DNA of 56,533 nt from SAR86 cluster bacterium (GTDB lineage: Bacteria; Pseudomonadota; Gammaproteobacteria; Magnimaribacterales; TMED112), in contig JADHNL010000003.1 in the NCBI GenBank assembly GCA_016779525.1, positions 1-56,533 of the forward strand. The letters run 5' to 3'. Below, in pieces: positions 5,114 to 56,496 of this stretch. Both the position numbers and the translations under genes were made by a program. Below the pieces are notes generated by a model. That model worked only from the letters and a program-made list of their open reading frames with translations, was not told the DNA's origin and did not search any database. Positions within the stretch are counted from its first letter, which is position 1, and each line of letters begins with the position of its first letter.

Positions 5114-5561
5114 TTTAAATTTTTTTATTACAACCTTCTTTTGTATTTGCATCAACTACTTATTATTGAGCACAAATATATGGTCTATTATCCCCGATGT
5201 ATTTTTGTTACATATGTTATTTTTAGCCTCAACATACACAACTTACCCCAAGGTTTATTTCTTTATCTTAAATGGGTTTTTTATAGATATTTTCTTTTAT
5301 GAAATTATAGGGCCTTACACCTTAACTTACTTTGTAATTGGTATCTACCTGACATTTTCAGTAGCAAGGTGGGAGCAAAGATCCTTACTCATTCAGCTAG
5401 CTTTAATTTCATCCATTAGTCTATTAGTTAACATTTTAATTGGTGCACTTGAAGAGTATTCATTTGTGCGACACAGAGCTGTTATTAGCACAATTTTTCT
5501 GAATTTAATTTGGGTTTTAATTTTCATGTACCAAAGGGATAAATGGTTGAAAAATATTTAA
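5106..5561 (+). CDS. mreD: rod shape-determining protein MreD
   Basis: 151-aa polytopic membrane protein with PD and GFFID motifs, directly after mreC. Confidence 0.8.
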   Translation: MNNLNFFITTFFCICINYLLLSTNIWSIIPDVFLLHMLFLASTYTTYPKVYFFILNGFFIDIFFYEIIGPYTLTYFVIGIYLTFSVARWEQRSLLIQLALISSISLLVNILIGALEEYSFVRHRAVISTIFLNLIWVLIFMYQRDKWLKNI

Positions 5562-7540
5562 TCTGGCCTGCTAGGCTTTTCTTATATTTCTCGTGCCTAA
5601 CGCTCTTAGTATTCTATGTGTTTATTTTTTCATTAAGCTTCAATTCAGCTTCTAAAGCAATTATCAATTTAATAATGGGCGAGAATGTTTCATACGAAAA
5701 TCTATCAGTTAAACCTCGTTTATTGGGAATTAACATCGAAGGCAAGAACTTTAGTTACAAACAAGAGGATGTGATCTTTAGTGTTGAGAGCATTAGCTTG
5801 GATTTAGATTTTCTTAAAACAATACTAAAAAATAAATTCTACTTAAATGAGTCATCAATACTTAACGGAGGTATTAACTTTCTCGGTAGATCAAGGAATA
5901 TATCAAACTTAAATTTCCAAGTTGAAAATGCGGACTTCACAAATTTTAAATTTGAACATTTAGATTTTAAAAATCTAACGCTAAATAATGTTGTATCTGG
6001 GAAAGATGGAGTAGGTTTTGAATTCTCAAAATTAGATTTGAAACTTCCAAGCAATCTTCAGCAAATTAATAATCTATTCGGAATCGGTTATTTTATTGAT
6101 CGGCAATTAAAACTCCTTGTAAATTCTCCACTTGGGGAGCTGGACATCAATAACTTTGATAGGTTTCTATTCCCAGACTTAAAAGGCTTTATACACTTAA
6201 ATTTCTTAGAGGGTTTTAGCATTTCAAGAGGCCATTTATTCTCAGGAAGTAATAAAGAATTAGTAAATGCATACTTTGAATATGATAGATATTTTAATCT
6301 GCTTATAAATCAACAAGGCGACTCAAATAGTATTATTTCAGCACTTCCTGGAGATCTTGATGAAGTTGCTAGCTTCTTAGCTGAATCAAATTTTTACAGC
6401 AAGCATGTAAATTTACTCTTGTCCTATTCCTCAAAGGGCCAAGAAAATATTTTTGACTCCGTTGCAATTTATGATGAATTAGAAATTAACCTTAGTGGGC
6501 TAAAGCTTCGCTCAGCATTAGCAAAAAGCTATATCAATAGTAATAAGTTCTCACTTTTTTCTGAAAAAATGAATACTGAAAGTTTAAGTTTGAATAAATT
6601 GAATATTTCAAAAAAACATAACGACGATAGATTCCAAGTACATTTCAACTTATTAGGCTCACCATTTTGGTCAAGATACCGTAATCAAATCGCTTTAAAC
6701 TCAATATGGCATTATTCAACTCCTGAAAGTGAAGTTTCCTTTTCGATAGGTAAAGACAAAACAATTTATACCAAAGGTGAGTATGTTATAGGTTTTAGCT
6801 TGCCAGATGAATTGGGAATTAGAAAAAATGGTATACAAATCAATCCAATATCTGTTAGTTCCAATGTTTTTAATTTTAGTGATAGTTTTCAAAATGAACT
6901 TTTTTTTAATTTTGAAAAATTAAGACTTGAAAATGTTAATACAAATGCTTCTTTTAAAAAAAATTATCTTACTCCTGATGGCCTTGATTTTAAAAGTTTG
7001 TCACTCAGCTTGAAGGATGGGTTCGTTGATTTTAGTTCAGATAATCTGAGCATTGGAGGTGAAATAAATATTGCTGGAAGTAATGTAACCTATAGCGAAA
7101 ATACTTTTACTCCCGGAATTTTGGGTGTACTTTCTTTGATCGATATTAGGTCTAATATAATTGATTTATTAAGTTTAGATTTTGATAAATTAAATGCTGA
7201 AAACATCCTTGTAGACAGTCTTGAGGGGAATTTGTTTTTGGATGGTAATAATTTTGTAAATATAGATGTTATTGAACTTAACTTTGGTTCGGCACAAGCG
7301 AAGATTTCAGGGATAGTGAACTCTAATTTAGAGTATCTTGATACTTATGATTTAGATTTAGTATTTGATTCTAATATATCTCAAAATATCCCTTGGTATC
7401 TTGCATTATTTGGCAATATCCCAGCAGCAGCTGGAGCAGCAGTTATAGGTAATTTGCTTGAGCAAGATGGGAGTAAATTATTTTCAGCAAAGTATAAAAT
7501 CACAGGCACAACTAATGAGCTTAAAGTAAGCTCTAAGTAA
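5543..7540 (+). CDS. yhdP: YhdP/AsmA-like intermembrane phospholipid bridge protein, about half length
   Basis: N-terminal TM anchor, beta-rich body, C-terminus NIPWYLALFGNIPAAAGAAV...KYKITG like the YhdP C-terminal region; usual position downstream of mreBCD. Confidence 0.7.
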   Translation: MVEKYLIWPARLFLYFSCLTLLVFYVFIFSLSFNSASKAIINLIMGENVSYENLSVKPRLLGINIEGKNFSYKQEDVIFSVESISLDLDFLKTILKNKFYLNESSILNGGINFLGRSRNISNLNFQVENADFTNFKFEHLDFKNLTLNNVVSGKDGVGFEFSKLDLKLPSNLQQINNLFGIGYFIDRQLKLLVNSPLGELDINNFDRFLFPDLKGFIHLNFLEGFSISRGHLFSGSNKELVNAYFEYDRYFNLLINQQGDSNSIISALPGDLDEVASFLAESNFYSKHVNLLLSYSSKGQENIFDSVAIYDELEINLSGLKLRSALAKSYINSNKFSLFSEKMNTESLSLNKLNISKKHNDDRFQVHFNLLGSPFWSRYRNQIALNSIWHYSTPESEVSFSIGKDKTIYTKGEYVIGFSLPDELGIRKNGIQINPISVSSNVFNFSDSFQNELFFNFEKLRLENVNTNASFKKNYLTPDGLDFKSLSLSLKDGFVDFSSDNLSIGGEINIAGSNVTYSENTFTPGILGVLSLIDIRSNIIDLLSLDFDKLNAENILVDSLEGNLFLDGNNFVNIDVIELNFGSAQAKISGIVNSNLEYLDTYDLDLVFDSNISQNIPWYLALFGNIPAAAGAAVIGNLLEQDGSKLFSAKYKITGTTNELKVSSK

Positions 7541-17197: not shown

Positions 17198-17814
17198 TTT
17201 TTTACTCAGAAGAAAAAGGACATTACAGTCACATGGTGAGGCTTGTGTTGGCTGAAAAAGATATTTCGTGTGAGGTCAAAGAGTTTGACCCAGAGGGAAG
17301 CCTTCCTGACGAGTTACCAGCTATAAATCCCTACAATAAGCTCCCGGTACTTGTAGACAGGGAAGTAACTATTTATGAGCCACGAATTATTCTGGAATAT
17401 CTTGATGAAAGATTTCCTCATCCACCACTTTTACCAATATATCCAAACGAAAAAGCAGAGTGCAAGCTTTTAATTCATAGAATTGAAAGAGATTGGCTGC
17501 CATTGATTGATAAAATGATGGACCCAAAAGTTTCACAAAAAGACTTTGATAAGCTGAAAAAAGAGCTTGTATCTTTGGTATCAGGAATCGTATTGGTCTT
17601 AAAGGAAAAGCCATACTTTATGAGCGATGAATTTACATTAGTTGATTGTTACATGTCAGCTATTTTGTATAGACTTCCATACCTTGGTGTGACTGTGCCA
17701 GATACAAAATCTTTTTCAACCTTAAGAAATTATCAGAAAAAATTATTTTCTAGATCAAGTTTTGACCTATCATTAACTGATTCTGAGAGAGATTTAAAAT
17801 ATTCATTCAATTAA
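17194..17814 (+). CDS. sspA: stringent starvation protein A (GST fold)
   Basis: NPYNKLP, EYLDERFPHPPLLP, YFMSDEFTLVDC; conserved position after petC. Confidence 0.95.
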   Translation: MIFYSEEKGHYSHMVRLVLAEKDISCEVKEFDPEGSLPDELPAINPYNKLPVLVDREVTIYEPRIILEYLDERFPHPPLLPIYPNEKAECKLLIHRIERDWLPLIDKMMDPKVSQKDFDKLKKELVSLVSGIVLVLKEKPYFMSDEFTLVDCYMSAILYRLPYLGVTVPDTKSFSTLRNYQKKLFSRSSFDLSLTDSERDLKYSFN

Positions 17815-18841
17815 AATAAGAAGTTGATTCTATTTTTCTTTTTGTAAGTGTATAAATCCCGCCGTATCCACGCAATTCACCCAGCAATTTATTCGACTTA
17901 GCATAGGCTAACAGCATTGAATCATATCCCAGAGTATAGCTTCTGCTTTTTTTAAGATCGTAACCAAATGGATTTTCATAAGTATGATCAAAAGTATTTA
18001 TTTGATGTAGTGTAATTTCATTTAAATCAAGCTGATTATCAAGATCAAAAGTAAGAATTGAAATCTTATAATTCAACCCATAATTAAAGCGTATCTTTGA
18101 AGCAATATCGTATACTTCATCTTCATTTTCTGGAAAAATTACAATTTGATCTATATCAGTTCGAGTTCTTGGTTCAAAATTTACTTTTGAAAAACTTGCT
18201 TCTTTCACTAACTCGTACCTACTTTCACTTTGAGATACACCTAAAGTAAAGCGAATATTGTTTTCCGATAAAGGTTGCTGTAAAAAAACATAATCCAAGT
18301 TTTGGTCTAGTCTCTCAAAATTTTTTTGAGCATTATTCCCAGCCAATAAAATCTTTGTCGCCTTTAGTCTTAATAGGTGTTTATTCAAAGAGTTTATTTG
18401 TGCTTGCGAATTTGGTGGCACAAACATATTATTCCTTGCAGTATTCATTAAAATTAGATTTAAATTTGCTCCTTGGTTATCAAGAATTTCAACCTGCATT
18501 GGGTCAAATGGCCCAATAATAAAACTATTCTGATTAGAATCTAATGAGCTACCTTCATCAAAAAATTTTACAGAATTTTTTATCTTAAGATCCATGTAAG
18601 CGTGCATTACACCTAGCTGATAATAGGTTGAAAAGCTCTCATATTCATTAGGATCAGGAATTAAGAAAATATATTCAAATGCATTTGATTCGGTTAAATT
18701 TTTAGGAACATTAGAAATTGTCGTGAAAGCTAAATTATCAATTGGCATTAAATAGCTCTCATTATTTTTTTCCAACTGTACATTCGAACAAGCAGAGACC
18801 AGGATTATATGAAATACTATTAATAAAAATGTTCTAAGCAT
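17807..18841 (-). CDS. lpoA: PBP1A activator LpoA/LppC-like lipoprotein, C-terminal domain only
   Basis: Lipobox VSAC; IIGP, RTRTDID, RSYTLGYDS and LRGYGG resemble the LppC domain; divergent from rsmI as in other gammaproteobacteria. Confidence 0.72.
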   Translation of the reverse strand: MLRTFLLIVFHIILVSACSNVQLEKNNESYLMPIDNLAFTTISNVPKNLTESNAFEYIFLIPDPNEYESFSTYYQLGVMHAYMDLKIKNSVKFFDEGSSLDSNQNSFIIGPFDPMQVEILDNQGANLNLILMNTARNNMFVPPNSQAQINSLNKHLLRLKATKILLAGNNAQKNFERLDQNLDYVFLQQPLSENNIRFTLGVSQSESRYELVKEASFSKVNFEPRTRTDIDQIVIFPENEDEVYDIASKIRFNYGLNYKISILTFDLDNQLDLNEITLHQINTFDHTYENPFGYDLKKSRSYTLGYDSMLLAYAKSNKLLGELRGYGGIYTLTKRKIESTSYFN

Positions 18842-44952: not shown

Positions 44953-45005
44953 CTTGTGAATAGAAATATTGAAAAACATTCAAGTCATTAATTGGAAGTA
45001 TTTAC

Positions 45006-45048
45006 TTGTAAGAAAAAAAAATATAGATTACTGTATATATATACACTT
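45006..45048 (+). promoter_or_regulatory. recA promoter overlapped by a near-consensus LexA (SOS) box
   Basis: TTGTAA (45006-45011), 17 nt, TACTGT (45029-45034). CTGTATATATATACAC (45031-45046) matches CTGT-N8-ACAG except at the last base. Confidence 0.7.
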
Positions 45049-45055
45049 ATTTAAA

Positions 45056-46033
45056 ATGGCTGATAATAAAAAACAAACTCTCGAAAATGCCCTTAAGCAA
45101 ATTGAAAGTCAATTTGGCAAGGGAACAATAATGAAACTAGGTGCTAGAGAGGCGGTAGAAGTGCCGTCAATATCAACAGGCTCTTTTGGTCTTGATAAAG
45201 CTCTAGGGATTGGAGGGCTTCCTAAAGGAAGAGTAGTTGAAATCTATGGACCAGAATCTTCAGGAAAAACAACTCTAACATTGCAGATTATAGCTGAGTG
45301 TCAGAAAGCTGGTGGAAATGCGGCATTTATCGATGCAGAGCATGCACTGGATCCAGAGTATGCCAAAGCACTTGGGGTTGATATTGATGAACTGCTGCTT
45401 TCTCAACCTGATACTGGAGAACAGGCCCTGGAAGTTACAGATATGTTGGTAAAAAGTGGAAGTTTAGATGTGATTGTTATCGATAGTGTTGCTGCTTTGG
45501 TACCAAGAGCAGAGCTCGAGGGTGACATGGGTGATTCGCATGTAGGCTTGCAAGCTCGACTTATGTCTCAAGCATTAAGAAAAATTACAGGAAGCATTCA
45601 AAAATCAAACACTCTTGTCATTTTTATAAATCAGATAAGAATGAAAATTGGAGTTATGTTTGGAAGTCCTGAAACAACAACAGGTGGTAATGCCTTAAAA
45701 TTCTACTCAAGTGTCCGATTAGATATACGAAGAGTGGGTGCTATAAAAGATGGCGATGAAATTGTTGGGAACGAGACAAGAGTTAAAGTTGTCAAAAATA
45801 AAATGGCACCACCATTTAAGGTTGTAGACTTTCAGATTTTGTATGGCAAAGGTATTAACAGGATGGCAGAAATCATAGAGCATGCTGTTAAAAAAGGAAC
45901 TATAGAGAAAGCTGGATCTTGGTACAGTTTTGAGGGCGATAAAATTGGTCAAGGCTTAAGTAATGCTTCACAGTTTTTAGTCGATAATCCTAAGGTTCTT
46001 GAGAAAGTTGAACAATCTATTATTGAGACTTAG
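45056..46033 (+). CDS. recA: recombinase RecA (325 aa)
   Basis: [43 protein letters not shown]. Start moved from 44969 to ATG 45056. Confidence 0.99.
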
Positions 46034-47901
46034 TTAGCTTTAACTTCTTGAATATATTTATCAATTATTGCCTCTAGTACTGTTAGAGGCAAAGACCCAT
46101 TCATGAGCACGTGATGATGAAAATCTCTAATGTCGTAACGGTTCCCAAGTTCATTTTGAGCCTTCTCTCTAAGCTCTAGGATTTTAATTTGCCCAATCAT
46201 GTAGGCGCACGCTTGCCCTGGCCAAACAATATATCTTTCTATCTCAGATGTAGCTTCACTTTCTTCTGATCCAACATTTTCCATCATATATTTAATTGCC
46301 TCTTCTCTAGTCCACTTCTTATAATGAATTCCAGTATCAACCACCAATCTTACTGCTCTAAATAGTTCTGATTGAAGAGAACCTATCATTTCATAAGGAT
46401 CATTAATTAATCCTGCTTCAATGGCTAATCTTTCCGAATATAATGCCCAACCTTCTCCAAAGGCGGAAGTTCTGTAACCTAGTTTTTTCCAAATTGTTTG
46501 ATTTTGATTTTCTTGATTTAAGGCATTTTGAAAGTGATGTCCTGGTATAGCTTCATGAAAAGAAAGAGCTGGCATCCCAAATTTTTTAGTTGCTTTTATA
46601 TCGTAGAGGTTCGCATAAAAGATGCCTGGTCTTGAACCATCCAGCGCAGGTGATTGATAGTATCCTCCTGCAGCGCTTGCCTCGGCATATTCAGGTATTC
46701 TTTTTACTATTACCTCAGCTTTTGGTAATTGATGAAAATAGCTGCCCATCTCTGTCAAAGCATTTACTTGTATTTCTGTATACTTCTCTATGATTTGTCT
46801 TCTACCTTGATCTGAGTCTTCAAATAGAAATCTTGGGTCATTATTTAATTCATCATATAAAAATGGTAAAGGTTGTGTTGTGTCATAACCCTCATTTTCA
46901 AAAATATTAATGATTTCCGTTTGGATTTCGCTTACAAGTTTTAGGCCAATTTCATGAATTTCTTCAGGGGAGTAGTCTGTGGTGGTATAAATCTTTAATC
47001 GATGTTTATAAAAATCTTGACCATTGGGTAGTGCCCAAACGCCATCCGTAGTTCGAGCATTCAATAGCTGCTCATTAATAACTGAGGCTAGATTCTGATA
47101 GCTTTTGATAAAAGTATTTGAAAGTGCAGCCTCTAGTTGATTCAGATAGAGTTTTTTTAACCCATCATCTATTTCTACTGTTTCAATCTTTTCATTAAGA
47201 TTCTTATAGATTGGGTTATCGATTAGCTCTAATGATGCAAGTGCCTCTATTTGATTCTTAGCTTTTTTGTAAACAAATTTTGGCGAATATATTCCTTTTT
47301 TCTCTCTTTCTCTTAGGAAGAGGATAGATTCATTAATCACATCATCTATTGCAGATACTCTATCAATGTAATTTTTAACAGATTTTTCATCTGTAATCTT
47401 ATGTGTATCTGTCAGAAACTCTACGAGATTGAGATGTAAACCAAAAAATTGTGAAAGAGGATTGAAGTGATGTTGAAAAGATTCGTAGCTTACTTTTTGG
47501 TTTTTGAGACTGAATTTTGCTATCTGTAGATTAAATTTTTCATCTTGCAATTTGTTTTCATCAAATTTTTCTAAAGTGCTCAGGCGAACAATGGTTTCTT
47601 CATAACTCTTCTGGCTACTTTTCTGACTGTAATCGTCCCATCTAGAATTATGGCCAGTGAACATATCTAGCTCATCAAGTCCCATGTAGCTAAGTCTTTC
47701 TGGACTCGATAGTATGTCTTCAATGAGTATACGATCTAGATATCTATCAAGCTGATTTGTTGGGGTTGCACCCCAGTTTCGTAGCTTGTTTTCGAGCATT
47801 TTTGTTGCAAAAAAGTTGGGGTTAAACGAGAGTATGACTAACAAAGCTACGAGCAATGATCCGAGTAAAAAACCACCAATTGTTGTAAAAAATTTGATCA
47901 T
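46030..47901 (-). CDS. DUF885-family putative zinc metallopeptidase with N-terminal membrane anchor
   Basis: [35 protein letters not shown]...PGQAC.Y, FHH..L..GSLPL. Confidence 0.88.
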
Positions 47902-49215: not shown

Positions 49216-49461
49216 ATGCCCATTTACGAGTATTACTGCGAAGTATGTCAATCAAAGTTTGAAGTAATTCAAAAAATTTCAGATCAACCTCTGGGAAAAT
49301 GCTTAAAATGTAAGAAGTCAAAAAAATTAGTAAAATTAGTATCTGCACCCGGATTCAGATTAAAGGGCTCCGGTTGGTACGAAACTGATTTTAAAGTTGG
49401 AGCTAAAAAAAATATTCACGAAGAAGAAAAAAAAGTTAAGAGTAAAAAAAATGAGAACTAA
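49216..49461 (+). CDS. FmdB-family zinc-ribbon protein
   Basis: MPIYEY.C..C...C..C and FRLKGSGWYETDF; usual neighbour of aspS. Confidence 0.92.
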   Translation: MPIYEYYCEVCQSKFEVIQKISDQPLGKCLKCKKSKKLVKLVSAPGFRLKGSGWYETDFKVGAKKNIHEEEKKVKSKKNEN

Positions 49462-51211
49462 TTATTGTGGAGAAATAACAAAAGAACTTCTTGGTGAAGA
49501 AGTAACTGTTTGCGGTTGGGTGCATCGAAGAAGGGACCATGGTGGTGTCATTTTCTTAGATCTCAGAGATACCACAGGAATTGTTCAGCTAGTTATTAAT
49601 CCAGATGCTGGAGAGAGTTTTAAGATTGCTGAAGATGTTAGAGGGGAGTATGTCTTAAAGGCAACTGCAAAAGTAGATCCTAGACCAGAAGACAGCGCCA
49701 ACAAGGATTTGAATACTGGAGAAATAGAGCTTAATGTCAAAGCATTAACAATTTTAAACGTAGCAGAGACTCCAGCTTTTCCTCTTGATCAGTCATCAGA
49801 AGTTGGAGAGGATGTGCGTCTGAAGAATAGGGCACTCGATCTTAGACGGCCTGAAATGCAAAAAAATATTAGAACAAAGGCCTTGCTCACTAAGGCAATT
49901 CGAGATTACCTGGAGAGCAATAGATTTCTTGATATAGAAACTCCAATTTTAACTAAAGCAACTCCAGAAGGAGCACGAGATTATCTGGTACCAAGTAGAA
50001 CTAATCCTGGAAAATTTTTTGCTCTTCCACAATCACCACAACTATTTAAGCAAATGCTAATGATTTCTGGTTTTGACAGATATTATCAAATTGCAAGATG
50101 TTTCAGAGATGAGGATCTGCGTGCAGACAGGCAGCCTGAATTTTCTCAAGTTGATATAGAAGCATCTTTTGTTGAGGAAAACGATGTAATGAACTTTTCT
50201 GAGGAAATGATCAAGGAATGTTTTAAAAATGTTCTGGATGTGGATTTAGGGGAAATAAATAAGATTACATGGACGGAAGCTATGGAAACCTATGGAAGTG
50301 ATAAGCCAGATCTTAGGAATCCATTAAAACTCTTAGAAGTAAGTGAGTTATTTAGCAAAGAGGAATTTAAAGTATTTTCAGATCCAGCCAATGACTCTAA
50401 TTCTCGAATTGCTGCCCTAGTCATTAAAAATGGTAGCTCAATCGGCCGCGGACAAATTGATAGATACACCGATTTTGTAAAAGATTTTGGTGCTAAGGGT
50501 CTAGCTTATATTAGGGTTGAAGAAGCTAAGGTTGAGGGCCTTTCATCTCCAATACTGAAATATCTCTCTAAAGAATGTTTGGAAGCAGTATTTTCAACTC
50601 TCAATTTGGCTAAAGATGATTTAGTTTTCTTTGGTGCAGGTAAGAAAAAAACTGTAAACGATTACATGAGCAGGTTAATGGCTAAGATTGGTGATGATGG
50701 AGAGCTTTTAGATGAAGGCTTCAAAGCGTGTTGGGTAACAAACTTTCCAATGTTTGAAGAAGACAGCAATCAAAACCTTACTTCATTGCATCATCCTTTT
50801 ACCAGCCCAAACATTAATAATGTGGATGAACTTAATAATATCGATCCACTTAACCTTGCTTCTAGAGCATATGATTTAGTAATTAACGGAATAGAGATTG
50901 GTGGAGGTTCAATTCGTATTCACGATCAAAGCATCCAAGACAAGGTATTTAAACTGTTGGGTCTAGATGAAAGTGAAGTTCAGGAAAAATTCGGCTTCTT
51001 TCTGAATACGTTGTCAACGGGGTGCCCTCCCCACGGCGGTATTGCATTTGGTCTTGATAGATTAGCAATGATTATGGTGGGTGCTAATTCGATAAGAGAT
51101 GTAATTGCATTTCCAAAAACACAATCTGCTCTTTGTCTTCTGACTGAAGCTCCTGGTAATGTTTCTAGTGAAAGTCTAGATGAATTAAATATATCTTTAA
51201 TGGAGGAATAG
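49451..51211 (+). CDS. aspS: aspartyl-tRNA synthetase (probably non-discriminating)
   Basis: MRTNYCG, RRDHGG, TPEGARD, LPQSPQ, FRDED.RADRQPEF, HHPFT, GLDR; start ATG 49451. Confidence 0.99.
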   Translation: MRTNYCGEITKELLGEEVTVCGWVHRRRDHGGVIFLDLRDTTGIVQLVINPDAGESFKIAEDVRGEYVLKATAKVDPRPEDSANKDLNTGEIELNVKALTILNVAETPAFPLDQSSEVGEDVRLKNRALDLRRPEMQKNIRTKALLTKAIRDYLESNRFLDIETPILTKATPEGARDYLVPSRTNPGKFFALPQSPQLFKQMLMISGFDRYYQIARCFRDEDLRADRQPEFSQVDIEASFVEENDVMNFSEEMIKECFKNVLDVDLGEINKITWTEAMETYGSDKPDLRNPLKLLEVSELFSKEEFKVFSDPANDSNSRIAALVIKNGSSIGRGQIDRYTDFVKDFGAKGLAYIRVEEAKVEGLSSPILKYLSKECLEAVFSTLNLAKDDLVFFGAGKKKTVNDYMSRLMAKIGDDGELLDEGFKACWVTNFPMFEEDSNQNLTSLHHPFTSPNINNVDELNNIDPLNLASRAYDLVINGIEIGGGSIRIHDQSIQDKVFKLLGLDESEVQEKFGFFLNTLSTGCPPHGGIAFGLDRLAMIMVGANSIRDVIAFPKTQSALCLLTEAPGNVSSESLDELNISLMEE

Positions 51212-51948
51212 TGGCAGGTCATTCCAAGTGGGCAAATATTAAACATAGAAAAGCACGACAAGATGCAAAAAGAGGAGCTGTCTTTACCAAGATTATTAGA
51301 GAATTAACTGTAGCAGCAAAAGATGGTGGAGGAATCATTGAGGATAATCCTAGGTTGCGGTTGGCTTACGATAAAGCTCTTTCAGCAAACATGACGAAAG
51401 ACACAATTAACAGAGCTATACAAAGAGGTGCAGGTGGGCAAGAAGGACAGAACCTTGAGGAAGTTCTTTATGAAGGTTACGCTCCAGGGGGCGTTGCGGT
51501 TTTAGTAAAAACACTTACTGACAATAAAAATAGAACTGTTTCAGAAGTAAGACATGCATTTTCAAAATTTGGTGGCAATTTGGGGACTTCAGGGTCAGTG
51601 GCATATTTATTTGAGTCCAAAGGCAAGTTGTTAGTAAATTCAACTTTAGAAAATGAGACATTCTATGACCTTGTCATAGAAAATGGCGCTGAGGATCTTG
51701 ATCAAGTTAGTGATGAGCAGATAGAGATTGTGTGTCAACCCAAGGATGTATCAAATCTAAAAAGAGTACTGGAAGAATCAGAATTTAGTGTTGAAGCATC
51801 TGAAATTGTGATGGAGGCCGATAATTCAATAAGTCTTGATCCTGAACAATCCGAAAAAAACATGAAACTTACAGATGCTTTAGAAGATCTCGATGATGTG
51901 CAAGAAGTCTTTACAAATGCAGACTTAGATGTTTCAGTATTTGAATAA
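51211..51948 (+). CDS. yebC: YebC/PmpR-family protein
   Basis: MAGHSKWANIKHRK, YEGY.PGG, TDNKNRT, LEDLDDVQ; GTG start with SD GGAGG. Confidence 0.97.
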   Translation: MAGHSKWANIKHRKARQDAKRGAVFTKIIRELTVAAKDGGGIIEDNPRLRLAYDKALSANMTKDTINRAIQRGAGGQEGQNLEEVLYEGYAPGGVAVLVKTLTDNKNRTVSEVRHAFSKFGGNLGTSGSVAYLFESKGKLLVNSTLENETFYDLVIENGAEDLDQVSDEQIEIVCQPKDVSNLKRVLEESEFSVEASEIVMEADNSISLDPEQSEKNMKLTDALEDLDDVQEVFTNADLDVSVFE

Positions 51949-52355
51949 TGACAATTAATCAGAGAAAAAAAGGGCATGATTTTGAACGAAAGATATCAAG
52001 AATGCTCCAAGATGATCTGGAGTTAAAGAAACCGGTTCGTAGAATTCTCTCCCAATATCAAGAAAAAGATCATCCTGATTTAAAACTCGGAAGATGGAAT
52101 TTAGAGTGCAAAGCCTACAAAAAAGGTTTTGAGCCTGCTTCAGCATGGTGGGCACAAGTAGTTGGAGTAACCCGAGAGGATGAATTTCCAGCCTTAGTTT
52201 ATAAATTTGATAACAAACCAATCAGAGTGAGGGTTAGAGTCTCTGAAGTGAATCCTAACCTCACAGATTCACTAAAAGTTGTTGATCTTAATTGGGAAAG
52301 CTATTGTTATTTATTGAAAACAATGTACCAAGACGACCTTAGGAGCCATTTTTAA
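51948..52355 (+). CDS. PD-(D/E)XK endonuclease, putative Hjc/phage-type Holliday junction resolvase
   Basis: RKKG..FER (E13), PD (D44) and ECK (E53, K55) follow the Hjc-like catalytic arrangement; occupies the ruvCAB position. Confidence 0.75.
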   Translation: MTINQRKKGHDFERKISRMLQDDLELKKPVRRILSQYQEKDHPDLKLGRWNLECKAYKKGFEPASAWWAQVVGVTREDEFPALVYKFDNKPIRVRVRVSEVNPNLTDSLKVVDLNWESYCYLLKTMYQDDLRSHF

Positions 52356-53005
52356 TGAACTTAGAGATTTTTGATTTATTAAGCAATGCCTCTTTACCCG
52401 TACAAATAATACTTTTGATACTAGTAGTAGCGTCAGTATTGTCTTGGATTCTAATATTTGAAAGGTTTTTTACTCTCAGCAAAGCCACGAAAAATTCACA
52501 TGAGGTAGAAGACCAATTTTGGGAAGGCGAGAGCGTTGAAAAACTATACTTCGATTTAAAAGAAAAAGATTTAATTGAGCTTGAAACATCAGAGCTTGTT
52601 TTGCTGACCGTGTATGAAGAGTTCTCAGACAAGACTTCAAAAAAAACAGAGGACTTAGAATCGGTAGAGCGTCTTGTACGCGTTGTTATTAATAGAGAAG
52701 AAGAAAGATTATCAAAAAATTTATCACTTTTGGCTACAATTAGCTCTAGTGCCCCATACATTGGTTTGCTTGGTACGGTTATCGGAATAATAAATGCTTT
52801 TGCCGGCCTGTCTACGACAGCTCAGTTAACATTAAGCTCAGTTGCACCAGGAATTTCAGAGGCCTTGGTTGCAACAGCAGTGGGCTTACTTGCTGCTATA
52901 CCTGCATTAATTGGCTACAATCAACTTACCAGGAAGTTGGAAAATGTTCTCAATGGATCCTTGGCTTTTGCAGAAGAGCTAATAACCAAATCATATAGAA
53001 ATTAA
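52355..53005 (+). CDS. tolQ: TolQ (MotA/TolQ/ExbB family)
   Basis: SVLSW, PYIGLLGTV.GI, APGISEALVATA.GL..AIPA. Confidence 0.96.
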   Translation: MNLEIFDLLSNASLPVQIILLILVVASVLSWILIFERFFTLSKATKNSHEVEDQFWEGESVEKLYFDLKEKDLIELETSELVLLTVYEEFSDKTSKKTEDLESVERLVRVVINREEERLSKNLSLLATISSSAPYIGLLGTVIGIINAFAGLSTTAQLTLSSVAPGISEALVATAVGLLAAIPALIGYNQLTRKLENVLNGSLAFAEELITKSYRN

Positions 53006-53008
53006 AAA

Positions 53009-53431
53009 ATGCTTCTTGGAAACAGACTTCAAGGTAAAAAGAAAATCATCAATGAGATCAATGTTGTTCCATATGTTGATGTTATGTTGGTGCTTTTGGT
53101 AATTTTTATGGTTGTGACTCCTTTAGCAGTACAAGGGCTTGATATAAATTTACCCAAAACTGAAGCAAAAGAAATAGAGCTTGAAAATAATTTACCTTTT
53201 GTAATTGATGTAAGTGAAGATGGTAATTATTTCATTGAAGAAGACAATGAGGTTGTTCAAGTCTCTATTGGTTTTCTTGAGGATAGGTTCAGTCGAGTAA
53301 TATCATTAAATCCTGAAGTAGAAGTTATTATAAGAGGAGATGGAGCTGCGGATTATCAATCAATTGCTGAATTACTTGCGGTACTACAATCAAATGGTGC
53401 CAATAATTTTTCTTTAGCAACACAACCATGA
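53009..53431 (+). CDS. tolR: TolR (ExbD family)
   Basis: EINVVPYVDVMLVLLVIFMV with the conserved TM Asp; IRGD. Confidence 0.95.
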   Translation: MLLGNRLQGKKKIINEINVVPYVDVMLVLLVIFMVVTPLAVQGLDINLPKTEAKEIELENNLPFVIDVSEDGNYFIEEDNEVVQVSIGFLEDRFSRVISLNPEVEVIIRGDGAADYQSIAELLAVLQSNGANNFSLATQP

Positions 53432-54009
53432 TTAGATGGCTAGCCGCAATCATATTCTCACTACTAATCCATGCATTAATCATCTTTTCTTATAACTTTT
53501 TTCAGAATTACGACTTAAATGTTAAAGAAAGAAAAGTTACCGGCGTTAAATTTTTGCCAGCTGAGAAAAAACAAGATGTAATTAATGAGATTCAAAAAAA
53601 ATCTACCGAACCAAAAATTGCTCAATCTACAGAAAAGCAACCTGCACTTGTTCAGCAAAAAAAAGACTTTTCAAGCTACATCAGCGAAGAGCTACTAATG
53701 GAAATGGATCAACAAAATTTGGATTTAGTCGAAGAAATAAGCTCAAAAGTTATCAATGATCTTCAAAATATATGGATTGAGCCAAACAATCTACCTCAAG
53801 GTGTTTATGCCGATTTTAGCTTAGAACTTGACCGGCTTGGTAATATCATCTCATTTAAACTCATCAGGTCTAGTGGCATTGGAGCTTTTGATAGGGCTGC
53901 ACAAAATGCAATCCGAAAATACAACAAAATCAAATACATTGCTGAAATTGATCAATCATTGTATTCAACATACTTTGAGAAATTTACAATAAGGTTTATA
54001 CCTAAATGA
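53428..54009 (+). CDS. tolA: TolA-like protein (short)
   Basis: TM with S...H (SLLIH), short linker, TolA/TonB C-terminal domain (W..P, SSG..AFD.AA..AI); between tolR and tolB. Confidence 0.82.
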   Translation: MIRWLAAIIFSLLIHALIIFSYNFFQNYDLNVKERKVTGVKFLPAEKKQDVINEIQKKSTEPKIAQSTEKQPALVQQKKDFSSYISEELLMEMDQQNLDLVEEISSKVINDLQNIWIEPNNLPQGVYADFSLELDRLGNIISFKLIRSSGIGAFDRAAQNAIRKYNKIKYIAEIDQSLYSTYFEKFTIRFIPK

Positions 54010-55259
54010 AAAAACTTTTTTTACTACTAATTAGTATTGGTAATCTCTATGCCGACTTGGTTTTAGAAATTACACAGGGTTCGGAACAACCAGTTAGACT
54101 CGCTCTTATTGAAATTGGAGGATCTTCCTATGAGGGAAACGAGGTCATAGAAATTGTAAGAAACGATCTTTTAAGAACTGGTGAATTTGATGTGCTAACA
54201 AACGATCAGTTGCTTTCTATTCCAGCTTCAGAGGAAGATGTTATCCAAAGAGATTGGTTGTTACTTGAAGCGGATGCAATTGTTTTTATGAACATTCAGC
54301 AGGAACAAGGAGCATTGGATATTGAATATTCTTTTTTTGATATTGGTTATAAAGAGTCAATTGAGAAAAGAAAGGTTTTAGGCTTGCCTGATAGCGTCAG
54401 ACAAACAAGCCATTATGTCTCTGATGGAATATACGAGTTTTTCTACGGGATTGAAGGAGTTTCATCTACAAAATTAATGTATGTTGCCAAGAATTCAGAC
54501 ATATATAAATTAATTGTGAGCGATGCAGATGGTTTTAATGAGCAAGTGCTGCTGAAATCAAACAGTTCCATTATTTCACCGGCTTGGTCAGCCGATGCAA
54601 AAGATATTGCTTACGTTTCTTTTGAAAATAATAGAGCACAGGTATTTACTCAAAACCTAGAAACAGGTGAAAGGGAGTTGGTATTGAGCTCAAATGCTTC
54701 AGTTAGCTCTCCTGCGTGGTCACCAGACAAGAAGTTTCTTGCGTTCTCAACGACTAAAGATGGCAATTCTGAAATATATTTAATCAATCTAAAAAGCAAA
54801 GAGCTAACAAGACTTACAGACAACACAGCCATAGATACAGAGCCTGCTTGGTCTAAAGATGGTAAAAATCTATTATTTACATCAGATCGTGCAGGCTCCC
54901 CACAGATTTACCAAGTCAATATTAGGAACAAATTAAAAAGAAGGATTACCACTGTTGGAAGCTACAATGCTAGAGCATCTTATCTAAACCAAGATGAAAT
55001 AGTATTTGTCCATAGAGGAGAATCTGATTTTAATGTCGCCAAGATGAATCTTAATACAAGATCACTGGATATTTTAACTAGCACTAAGTTTGATGAAAGC
55101 CCATGCATCGCGCCCAATGGAAACGTTATTATTTATTCAACTAAAGACGGAAATTTATCTTACTTGGCTGGTGTAAATATAAGTAGCAGGGTAAAATTTA
55201 AACTTCCAGCACTGTATGGAGAATTAAAGGAGCCAGCATGGTCTCCATATTTAAGGTAA
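54006..55259 (+). CDS. tolB: TolB beta-propeller protein
   Basis: Signal peptide, LEITQG, DADG, repeated SPAWS/EPAWS blades, YVSFE, FTSDR. Confidence 0.96.
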   Translation: MKKLFLLLISIGNLYADLVLEITQGSEQPVRLALIEIGGSSYEGNEVIEIVRNDLLRTGEFDVLTNDQLLSIPASEEDVIQRDWLLLEADAIVFMNIQQEQGALDIEYSFFDIGYKESIEKRKVLGLPDSVRQTSHYVSDGIYEFFYGIEGVSSTKLMYVAKNSDIYKLIVSDADGFNEQVLLKSNSSIISPAWSADAKDIAYVSFENNRAQVFTQNLETGERELVLSSNASVSSPAWSPDKKFLAFSTTKDGNSEIYLINLKSKELTRLTDNTAIDTEPAWSKDGKNLLFTSDRAGSPQIYQVNIRNKLKRRITTVGSYNARASYLNQDEIVFVHRGESDFNVAKMNLNTRSLDILTSTKFDESPCIAPNGNVIIYSTKDGNLSYLAGVNISSRVKFKLPALYGELKEPAWSPYLR

Positions 55260-55261
55260 GT

Positions 55262-55753
55262 ATGAAAAAAATAATTTATTCTTTATTCGCTTTAGCACTA
55301 CTATTTTCTTGCTCATCAACTCAAGTTGAAAAAGTTTCACAACAAAAAACTACAACTGTAGATTTAACTGGTAACCAGGCTGCTCGTGGAGTTGTATCAC
55401 GAGAAAGTGTTGATCTTGGTGAGCCATATGTTCGAATTTACTTTGATTACGATAAAGACAATTTGAGAGAAGATATGCTTTCCGATCTATTGGCTATCTC
55501 AAAGTTAATGAAAGAAAACTCATCCTACACACTTTTAGTGGAAGGTCATGCAGATGAAAGAGGAACAAGAGAATACAACCTAGCATTGAGTGAAAGAAGA
55601 GCAAAATCTGTTGAAGATTTTCTAACGGCATCTGGAGTATCTCCGTTCAATATTGAAGTAGTTGGGTACGGTGAGGAAAAACCAGTAAACAATGCTTCCA
55701 ATGAGAGTGCATGGTCAAAAAATAGAAGAGCTGAATTATTCTTTATTAGGTAG
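55262..55753 (+). CDS. pal: peptidoglycan-associated lipoprotein Pal
   Basis: Lipobox LFSC, YFDYD, EGHADERGTREYN..LS.RRA, GEEKP, NRRA; ATG 55262. Confidence 0.97.
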   Translation: MKKIIYSLFALALLFSCSSTQVEKVSQQKTTTVDLTGNQAARGVVSRESVDLGEPYVRIYFDYDKDNLREDMLSDLLAISKLMKENSSYTLLVEGHADERGTREYNLALSERRAKSVEDFLTASGVSPFNIEVVGYGEEKPVNNASNESAWSKNRRAELFFIR

Positions 55754-56406
55754 TGTTTAGAAATCTATTTCTTTTTTCATTAATTCTTAACCTTCAAGGT
55801 GTTGCACAAGAATCTGAAAGCGATAAAGATTTTCTATCCTTGTTTATGAAAATACAGAATTTAGAGAAGGAAGTTGCACAATTAAGAAACGAGATCGAAG
55901 TATTAGAAGCCGAAGTCAAATATTACGAATCGCAAAATAAAAATTCTATTGATGGACTTGAGCTTAAAGTCCTTTCGCTAATGAGTTTAGACAATCTGCA
56001 GAATGCTGAAAGCACATTAGGTCAAAAATCCAATCAGCTTTTAAATTCTTATGAAGAGGCAATAATACTTATTCAGAAAGGCAACTTAGTCGAAGCGGTA
56101 AATACATTAAATAATTTTGTTGCCAATAACCAAGACGATGAACAAACTCCTTTGGCATACTTTTGGTTGGGTGAACTAAATTTGAGTCAAAATAACTTAG
56201 CTCTATCAATTCAAAATTTTAATACACTCATTGGGCTTTACCCAACTCACTGGAGAGTGCCTCTAGCCAAGTATAAACTTGGGGCAATTTATCTTGAGCA
56301 AGGGAATACAAATAGGGCCAAAACTCAGTTTGAGTTTGTGATTAAAGAATATCCCGATAGTTCTGCAGCAAAAGCTTCCAGAGAGTCTTTAGATAGTCTA
56401 GAATAG
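55753..56406 (+). CDS. cpoB: CpoB/YbgF TPR protein
   Basis: Signal peptide, coiled coil (LEKEVAQLRNEIE), TPRs (AYFWLGE, YKLG, YPDSSAA); follows pal. Confidence 0.88.
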   Translation: MFRNLFLFSLILNLQGVAQESESDKDFLSLFMKIQNLEKEVAQLRNEIEVLEAEVKYYESQNKNSIDGLELKVLSLMSLDNLQNAESTLGQKSNQLLNSYEEAIILIQKGNLVEAVNTLNNFVANNQDDEQTPLAYFWLGELNLSQNNLALSIQNFNTLIGLYPTHWRVPLAKYKLGAIYLEQGNTNRAKTQFEFVIKEYPDSSAAKASRESLDSLE

Positions 56407-56420
56407 CAAAATCATTTTGT

Positions 56421-56496
56421 GGGTCGCTAGCTCAGCTGGTAGAGCACCGGGCTTTTAACCCGTTGGTCATAGGTTCGAATCCTATGCGACCCACCA
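56421..56496 (+). tRNA. tRNA-Lys (anticodon TTT)
   Basis: Acceptor GGGTCGC/GCGACCC, D arm GCTC/GAGC, anticodon loop CTTTTAA, T arm ATAGG-TTCGAAT-CCTAT, encoded CCA; 76 nt. Confidence 0.98.

Follow-up and report, generated by a model that had tools for sequence, protein, structure and literature searches.

In-place displacement of RuvABC across the SAR86 order and a candidate phage-derived Hjc-type nuclease

The yebC-tolQ interval in SAR86 genomes

The window, a 56,533-nucleotide stretch of DNA from a SAR86 cluster bacterium (contig JADHNL010000003.1), contains a candidate resolvase open reading frame (ORF) at positions 51948..52355 of the forward strand, encoding a 135-amino-acid (aa), 15-kDa PD-(D/E)xK nuclease of family PF24608 (PDDEXK_15)/phrog_244. 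The ORF is bordered on the left by yebC (51211..51948; TIGR01033, 310 bits) and on the right by tolQ (52355..53005; TIGR02796, 221 bits), and TAATG stop/start overlaps join it to both. The upstream member of this conserved cluster is aspS (49397..51211; TIGR00459, 751 bits), and the downstream members are tolR-tolA-tolB-pal-ybgF/cpoB (53009..56406; NCBIfam), all on the forward strand. The window's only tRNA gene, tRNA-Lys(TTT) (56421-56496), follows ybgF/cpoB, 4 kb from the ORF. An intact recA gene (44969..46033, forward strand; TIGR02012, 544 bits) lies 6 kb upstream of the ORF. The original prediction, made from the sequence alone, had described a single ORF between yebC and tolQ with TAATG at both ends, and this arrangement was confirmed; R6-K7-K8-G9, F12-E13-R14, P43-D44, and E53-C54-K55 were likewise found at the residue numbers it gave.

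We scanned the other 52 ORFs of the window against NCBIfam. Housekeeping families accounted for 47 of them and 5 had no match; in none was an integrase or a phage-specific family the best match, and the scan turned up neither a methylase partner nor any mobile gene. Within positions 50500-54000, we found no perfect repeats paired across the ORF. The scan and the repeat search agree with the earlier statement that no integrase, att repeat, or phage gene lies nearby, and nothing about the ORF points to an active prophage or another mobile element: it has no integrase or phage gene beside it, no att repeats, and no patchy distribution. Its GC content (36.8%) and GC3 (30.1%) lie inside the ranges of six neighboring genes (33 to 38% and 18 to 31%, respectively). 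Median dN/dS was 0.051 for the ORF and 0.049 for yebC, calculated from the pairs with a dS of 0.1 to 1.5 (33 of 378 and 34 of 351, respectively), most pairs being saturated. Since this value is near that of yebC, we concluded that the reading frame did not arise by chance. Three long ORFs elsewhere in the window (positions 5543-7540, 17807-18841, and 46030-47901; 665, 344, and 623 aa) had no NCBIfam match at an E value of ≤1e-5.

We read the locus in 48 of the 238 genomes of the SAR86 order that carry the ORF (30 with the best matches and 20 picked for genus coverage, 2 being shared; genera g6, g10, g11, and g17 are absent from the 48). yebC was directly upstream of the ORF in 47 genomes, and the remaining locus stops at a contig edge. 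The order yebC-ORF-ybgC-tolQ was found in all 20 inspected genomes of families f2 to f4. In family f1, ybgC is gone and tolQ directly follows the ORF in 23 of 28 genomes; the window locus similarly has no ybgC, the gene that separates the ORF from tolQ in f2 to f4. In five of the 28 f1 genomes (L035, L039-L042, and L066; genus g1), tol-pal does not adjoin the ORF, which is still attached to yebC. Control loci had the order yebC..ruvA-ruvB..tolQ in 14 of 20 gammaproteobacterial cases, taken around ruvB and hand-picked from genomes with few contigs, and in 4 of 4 alphaproteobacterial cases. In 11 control loci, ruvC was assigned by a sequence motif; NCBIfam confirmed the assignment in two loci. 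Based on the gene order in f2 to f4 compared with that in the control loci, we concluded that the ORF replaces exactly ruvC-ruvA-ruvB. The contiguous sequence of the SAR86 slot contained no ruv remnant.

Distribution of the ORF and absence of RuvABC

The ORF was found in 238 of 266 genomes of the order, in 55 of 57 high-quality genomes, and in all 22 genera, with a single match per genome among the genomes listed, except in G171. The gene belongs to the SAR86 core genome. Our sample spans four families (f1 to f4) and 22 genera, numbers that are also given for SAR86/Magnimaribacterales in the Ramfelt preprint. All genomes of the order are incomplete assemblies, and that of the window itself (G000) is 74.5% complete. 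Because related genomes are not independent, these counts probably describe one ancestral event.

Neither RuvC (PF02075) nor RuvB_C was detected in any of the 266 genomes of the order, and RuvA was detected in one. None of ruvA, ruvB, and ruvC was found in any of the 57 high-quality genomes, several of which are single contigs. In a comparison set of 149 gammaproteobacterial genomes outside the order, RuvB_C was present in 148; the set includes G304 and G405, which are flagged as unpublished and enter no other count. The sole negative among the 149, G289, is a single contig of 0.4 Mb and probably belongs to an endosymbiont. A tblastn search of the whole single-contig genome G120 with real RuvA, RuvB, and RuvC gave only one weak match, in the ClpA region. 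The original prediction had RuvABC missing from the genome and the ORF regularly present among relatives; both held across the order. With RuvABC absent order-wide and the ORF in the ruv position in 20 of 20 loci of f2 to f4, the proposed in-place exchange for ruvC-ruvA-ruvB is borne out. We concluded that there has been a real, order-wide, in-place displacement of RuvABC.

Two sets of apparent ruv matches were rejected. The sole ruvA (L047:1093-1692) has an efflux-like ORF as its neighbor on a contig of 3.3 kb, in a genome (G192) that is 73% complete and 3% contaminated; the contig has a GC content of 38.7%, compared with 33.7% for a locus of the same genus, and is likely contamination. The genome of the window gave RuvB_N matches in frames of 417 to 770 aa, the best at 28 bits against a cut-off of 27. 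We assigned these to other AAA+ proteins, because they are weak and real RuvB queries reach only E values of ≥5e-4 there.

A survey of 117 species recorded RuvAB as missing from only two RecA-positive genomes, both of which have RecG (Rocha 2005, PMC1193525), and a later study put RuvAB loss at under 2% of genomes, mostly parasites (Zhang 2012, PMC3403352). We found no paper on ruv loss in SAR86, although supplementary gene tables or subscription papers could record the absence. The main text of the Ramfelt preprint, which describes a cultured SAR86 isolate, HIMB1674, does not contain the terms "ruv," "Holliday," "recombination," or "repair." Our literature search likewise gave nothing relevant on ruv or Holliday junctions in Pelagibacter or on T5 D14.

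Protein family, predicted fold, and phage relatives

The ORF matched PF24608 (PDDEXK_15) at 30 bits (cut-off, 27) and phrog_244 at an E value of 9.6e-13, and PF24608 matched all 106 rows of our alignment at an E value of ≤0.01. It had no match in NCBIfam, and a direct sequence search against the PDB returned nothing at an E value of ≤10. An AlphaFold2 model made from the 106 sequences (pLDDT, 88.9) has helices at residues 4-24 and 65-74 and strands at 45-47, 50-57, and 80-87, which, with E13, D44, E53, and K55, places the protein in the PD-(D/E)xK superfamily. We compared this model with 48,161 chains by using VIA-align. The best match was the archaeal resolvase Hje (1ob8; Z score, 9.9; rmsd, 2.8; 100 residues aligned), followed by three Hjc structures, 1gef (Z score, 9.6; rmsd, 3.1; 105 residues), 2wcw (9.4; 3.0; 104 residues), and 1hh1 (7.3). 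A homing endonuclease (Z score, 7.2) and restriction enzymes (6.5 to 7.1) came next, and RecU (5.9), the phage enzyme Hjc_15-6 (7bgs; 5.9), and VRR-Nuc (5.3) were lower. There was no RusA or RuvC structure among the 50 structural matches listed. The RuvC profile (PF02075) did not match the ORF, and the RusA profile (PF05866) matched neither the ORF nor any of the 106 rows. A Foldseek comparison with Hjc had been suggested with the original prediction. It placed Hjc and Hje at all of ranks 1 to 11, but with a best E value of 2.5e-3 (TM score, about 0.5), so that none reached 0.001.

The essential residues of Pyrococcus Hjc are E9, R10, R25, D33, E46, K48, and K81 (PMC10956419). The mapping of these residues rests on a weak alignment of the family profile to 1gef (E value, 0.04), identity to Hjc and Hje being about 20%; in it they align to E13, R14, R32, D44, E53, K55, and K86 of the ORF, respectively. 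Each of the seven counterparts is present in 29 of 29 SAR86 rows, and they are largely kept in 74 distant relatives. Hence, the Hjc-type pattern that had been read from the sequence was recovered both in the best structural matches and in these invariant residues. Based on the model and the alignment, E13, D44, E53, and K55 are predicted to form a Mg2+-dependent active site, with R14, R32, and K86 as predicted DNA contacts.

The protein resembles archaeal Hjc and Hje (1ob8, 1gef, 2wcw, and 1hh1) in its stand-alone size, predicted fold, E..D..ExK residues, and counterparts of R10, R25, and K81. It differs from them in its bacterial host, in its subthreshold relation to the Hjc profile PF01870, in the end of motif I, and in motifs of its own. 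PF01870 did not match the ORF at an E value of ≤1 and matched 4 of the 106 rows (best E value, 2.4e-4). Motif I of Hjc ends in G(F/Y), 9 to 11 residues past the Glu (PMC8805305); this end is missing from the ORF, which has L24-E25-L26, and Gly occurs at position 25 in 11 of 29 SAR86 rows. The conserved motifs of the SAR86 protein itself are R32-x-L34-x-Q36 and W67-W68-x-Q70. The ORF is therefore predicted to be Hjc-like by its fold yet outside PF01870. The calculated pI is 9.2 for the window protein and ranges from 5.1 to 9.6 among its orthologs, most of which are not basic.

Two database labels bear on the family. UniRef names a close homolog "Holliday junction resolvase, SAR86 cluster bacterium," which is an automatic label. 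PHROG labels phrog_244 "RusA-like"; our searches do not support this label, since PF05866 gave no match and, among the control genomes, phrog_244 matched only Haloferax and Sulfolobus and not E. coli. The matches in Haloferax and Sulfolobus presumably fall on their Hjc genes. We found no biochemical or genetic study of any PF24608 member in the literature.

Phage relatives include proteins of Roseobacter phages CRP-701, CRP-821, CRP-822, and CRP-406 and phage C72C1, with 24 to 31% identity across roughly 90% of the protein; the closest viral protein models have a TM score of 0.8. All six non-SAR86 relatives whose neighbors we read were in a phage or prophage context, with neighbors that include genes for a primase, a RecE-like exonuclease, a Sak-like annealing protein, SSB, and a terminase. 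Of 397 gammaproteobacterial genomes outside the order that were searched with the family profile, 2 carry the gene, in both cases beside phage genes (terminase and NinB). The phage nucleases belong to the same family as the SAR86 protein, but they are found in phage replication and recombination modules, whereas the SAR86 gene is a fixed chromosomal core gene. Viral contigs scanned with the ORF yielded no relative, and scanning with P0138 yielded no locus. One candidate relative, L016, was rejected: the match was weak and covered 22 residues, the context was not relevant, and its genome has no phrog_244 match.

A quick tree, built from 110 rows with 141 columns and with ten f1 rows labeled by similarity rather than by locus, recovered the four host families with SH-aLRT values of 100, 85, 99, and 97, consistent with vertical descent. 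Two further rows, a phage protein (L079) and one with a long branch, joined the SAR86 rows at an SH-aLRT value of 89. As the tree leaves SAR86 monophyly at an SH-aLRT value of 43, the direction and number of captures are inferred rather than read from the tree. The proposal of a phage-derived resolvase accordingly stood for the phage-type relatives and is less firm for the direction of transfer. Phage-to-host transfer is the simplest reading of the sequences. On this reading, the gene would have been captured once from a marine phage, before the order diversified, and would have come under the transcription and translation signals of yebC.

Recombination without RuvABC

We surveyed the rest of the recombination pathway in 58 genomes of the order, the 57 that are at least 90% complete plus G000. 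RusA (PF05866) was found in none of them, with E. coli as a positive control, and RadA was found in none at an E value of ≤1e-50. YqgF/RuvX was found in all 58. RecA and RecR were each detected in five of five genomes checked, and RecC in none of five. For RecG, the raw tally of 56 of 58 genomes was rejected, as 19 of the best matches were Mfd-like frames of 757 to 1118 aa (Mfd was confirmed in G120). Called by score and frame length, true RecG is present in 37 of the 58 genomes (one as a contig-end fragment) and missing from 21. By family, it was found in 8 of 8 genomes of f1, 14 of 14 of f2, 10 of 10 of f4, and 5 of 26 of f3. The RecG wedge was detected in none of four RecG-negative genomes, with a match in the positive control.

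recG has been cleanly deleted in all five loci that we read (L112-L116, from G128, G120, G065, G177, and G060): the neighbors of recG in G114 (L102, 7134-9191) abut in contiguous DNA. RecG, pyrophosphatase, YicC, and Gmk were assigned with NCBIfam, and the labels of the other flanking genes are putative. The five loci represent genera g7, g8, g12, g13, and g14, which form one branch of the nuclease tree (SH-aLRT value, 85).

In G120 (single contig, 95%), we scanned 58 of 1,030 ORFs, chosen by NTPase motifs, a filter that can miss genes. The scan named RecA, RecF, PriA, UvrD, UvrA/B, Mfd, DnaB, FtsK, and SMC; RuvB, RecG, RadA, RecQ, and Rep were the best match for none of the 58. It also identified a 389-aa SF2 helicase at the end of a trp run (L196:6836-8005), closest to archaeal XPB (E value, 2e-38; RadD, 4.5e-10). 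Weak matches in frames of 391 to 410 aa occur in all five RecG-less genomes, and the helicase was not found in G000. This XPB-like helicase may be a stand-in for branch migration. In E. coli recG ruvABC cells, loss of radA cuts residual recombination about 100-fold (PMC4357459). The original prediction had left branch migration to RecG, RadA, or RecA. RadA drops out, and RecG is available in only part of the order; thus, RecG would serve as migrator for the majority of genera, and the five without it would depend on RecA alone or on an unknown helper.

Taken together, our data favor the reading that the ORF product is an Hjc-type Holliday junction resolvase of phage origin, able to cut without RuvA or RuvB, to which we assign a probability of roughly 0.8. 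RecA, with RecFOR-type loading, would form junctions, and RecG would migrate them in the 37 genomes that have it, leaving RecA or general helicases for this step in the five RecG-less genera. The nuclease would bind the junction as a homodimer, as known Hjc enzymes do, and would make two symmetric nicks on opposite strands near the branch point through E13/D44/E53/K55 and Mg2+. Ligase would then seal the nicks. Hjc has no apparent sequence specificity (PMC10956419), so a nuclease of this type could act without RuvAB moving the junction to a site that can be cut, and the loss of all three ruv genes would thereby be explained. An archaeal Hjc can rescue the repair defect of E. coli without RuvC (PMC8805305, PMC10956419).

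We considered three other explanations. The best of them, which we consider unlikely, is that the ORF encodes a broader phage-type nuclease for branched DNA (forks, D-loops, and flaps) that clears intermediates, with four-way junctions being rare or resolved by YqgF/RuvX. YqgF is in every surveyed genome and has been named as a possible substitute in genomes that lack RuvC and RecU (Rocha 2005, PMC1193525), viral resolvases have been called more promiscuous (PMC3864405), and the lost RadA, partly lost RecG, and missing RecC point to a simplified pathway. However, YqgF was also found in 10 of 14 control genomes, including all 8 that have RuvC, and hence does not explain this locus. The fold matches to Hjc and Hje are well above those to VRR-Nuc and RecU, and the basic Hjc residues R10, R25, and K81 have invariant counterparts. 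Far less probable is a role unrelated to recombination, such as defense or a selfish remnant, with ruv deletion and phage insertion having coincided at the slot. PD-(D/E)xK proteins are functionally diverse, and a homing endonuclease and restriction enzymes follow Hjc in the fold comparison. Against this stand the single-copy core gene with a dN/dS equal to that of yebC, the recovery of the host families in the nuclease tree, a window without partner methylase or mobile gene, and an alphaproteobacterial genome with no RuvB match in which yebC is followed by a different member of the family. Finally, although the genomes are all incomplete, one has RuvA, and the order evolves fast (Ramfelt preprint), it is scarcely credible that RuvABC is present but was missed through incomplete assembly or divergence, given 57 high-quality genomes without any ruvABC gene, a contiguous slot without a ruv remnant, and the single weak ClpA-region match in G120.

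For the Hjc-type resolvase reading, partial precedents were already known, namely, the replacement of RuvC by RecU, the RuvAB-less Aquifex with RusA, and a phage Hjc-like enzyme. RuvABC itself held the same chromosomal slot that the SAR86 nuclease now holds, and in SAR86 the motor is gone too. RecU is also a PD-(D/E)xK replacement of RuvC, but genomes with RecU keep RuvAB and have RecU elsewhere (PMC1193525, PMC3403352). Aquifex aeolicus RusA is likewise a free-standing phage-type resolvase in a RecA-positive bacterium without RuvAB (PMC1193525, PMC10956419), and it cleaves junctions (PMC10956419). In contrast to SAR86, its resolvase has a different fold and Aquifex keeps RecG; in SAR86, the exchange was in place and covers a whole order, RusA and RadA were not found, and five genera lack RecG. 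Hjc_15-6 of Thermus phage Tth15-6 (7bgs) has an E..D..ExK site like that of the ORF, and its junction cleavage has been demonstrated (PMC8805305); unlike the SAR86 protein, it is not domesticated in a host chromosome, and its fold is farther from the SAR86 model than those of Hjc and Hje.

A search with phrog_244 of a 99-genome sample of the alphaproteobacterial class gave two matches. By our reading, one of them lies among phage-like genes. The other, in G717 (1.4 Mb), is a 168-aa PF24608 protein (L117:1369-1875/L119; 76.8 bits) encoded directly after yebC and before tilS-ftsH; at the same place, all four alphaproteobacterial controls carry ruvC-ruvA-ruvB-ybgC-tol-pal. Neither G717 nor its eight small-genome relatives gave a RuvB_C match; four larger genomes did. 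The G717 protein has 44% identity to jumbo-phage proteins and is distant from the SAR86 protein, so it was likely captured separately. The apparent exchange in G717 suggests convergence.

A wider reading, which we hold at about even odds, is that streamlined marine bacteria have, more than once, put different Hjc-type nucleases of phage origin in the very place of RuvABC. An abundant branch of SAR86 would then recombine with RecA, RecFOR-type loading, and one nuclease, without RuvAB, RecG, and RadA, the three branch-migration proteins known from bacteria, a gene set whose loss cripples recombination in E. coli, with the XPB-like helicase perhaps standing in. If the resolvase reading is correct, a free-living, globally abundant order that lacks RuvABC, RusA, and RadA, and partly RecG as well, would set a new minimum for the recombination machinery of bacteria, with relevance to how often bacteria recombine and how well they tolerate UV in surface waters of the ocean. 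The reading would also provide the first function for the uncharacterized phage family PF24608 and would make an archaeal-type resolvase fold a bacterial housekeeping enzyme.

Two minor observations concern other genes. In family f1, all eight genomes had no Mfd-like second match at an E value of ≤1e-100, and G120 Mfd matched only RecG in G000; the family of the window may lack mfd. Small stand-alone PDDEXK_1 frames (249 to 292 aa), absent from the two RecG-less genomes, were found in three of five genomes (L076-L078, from G007, G245, and G230).
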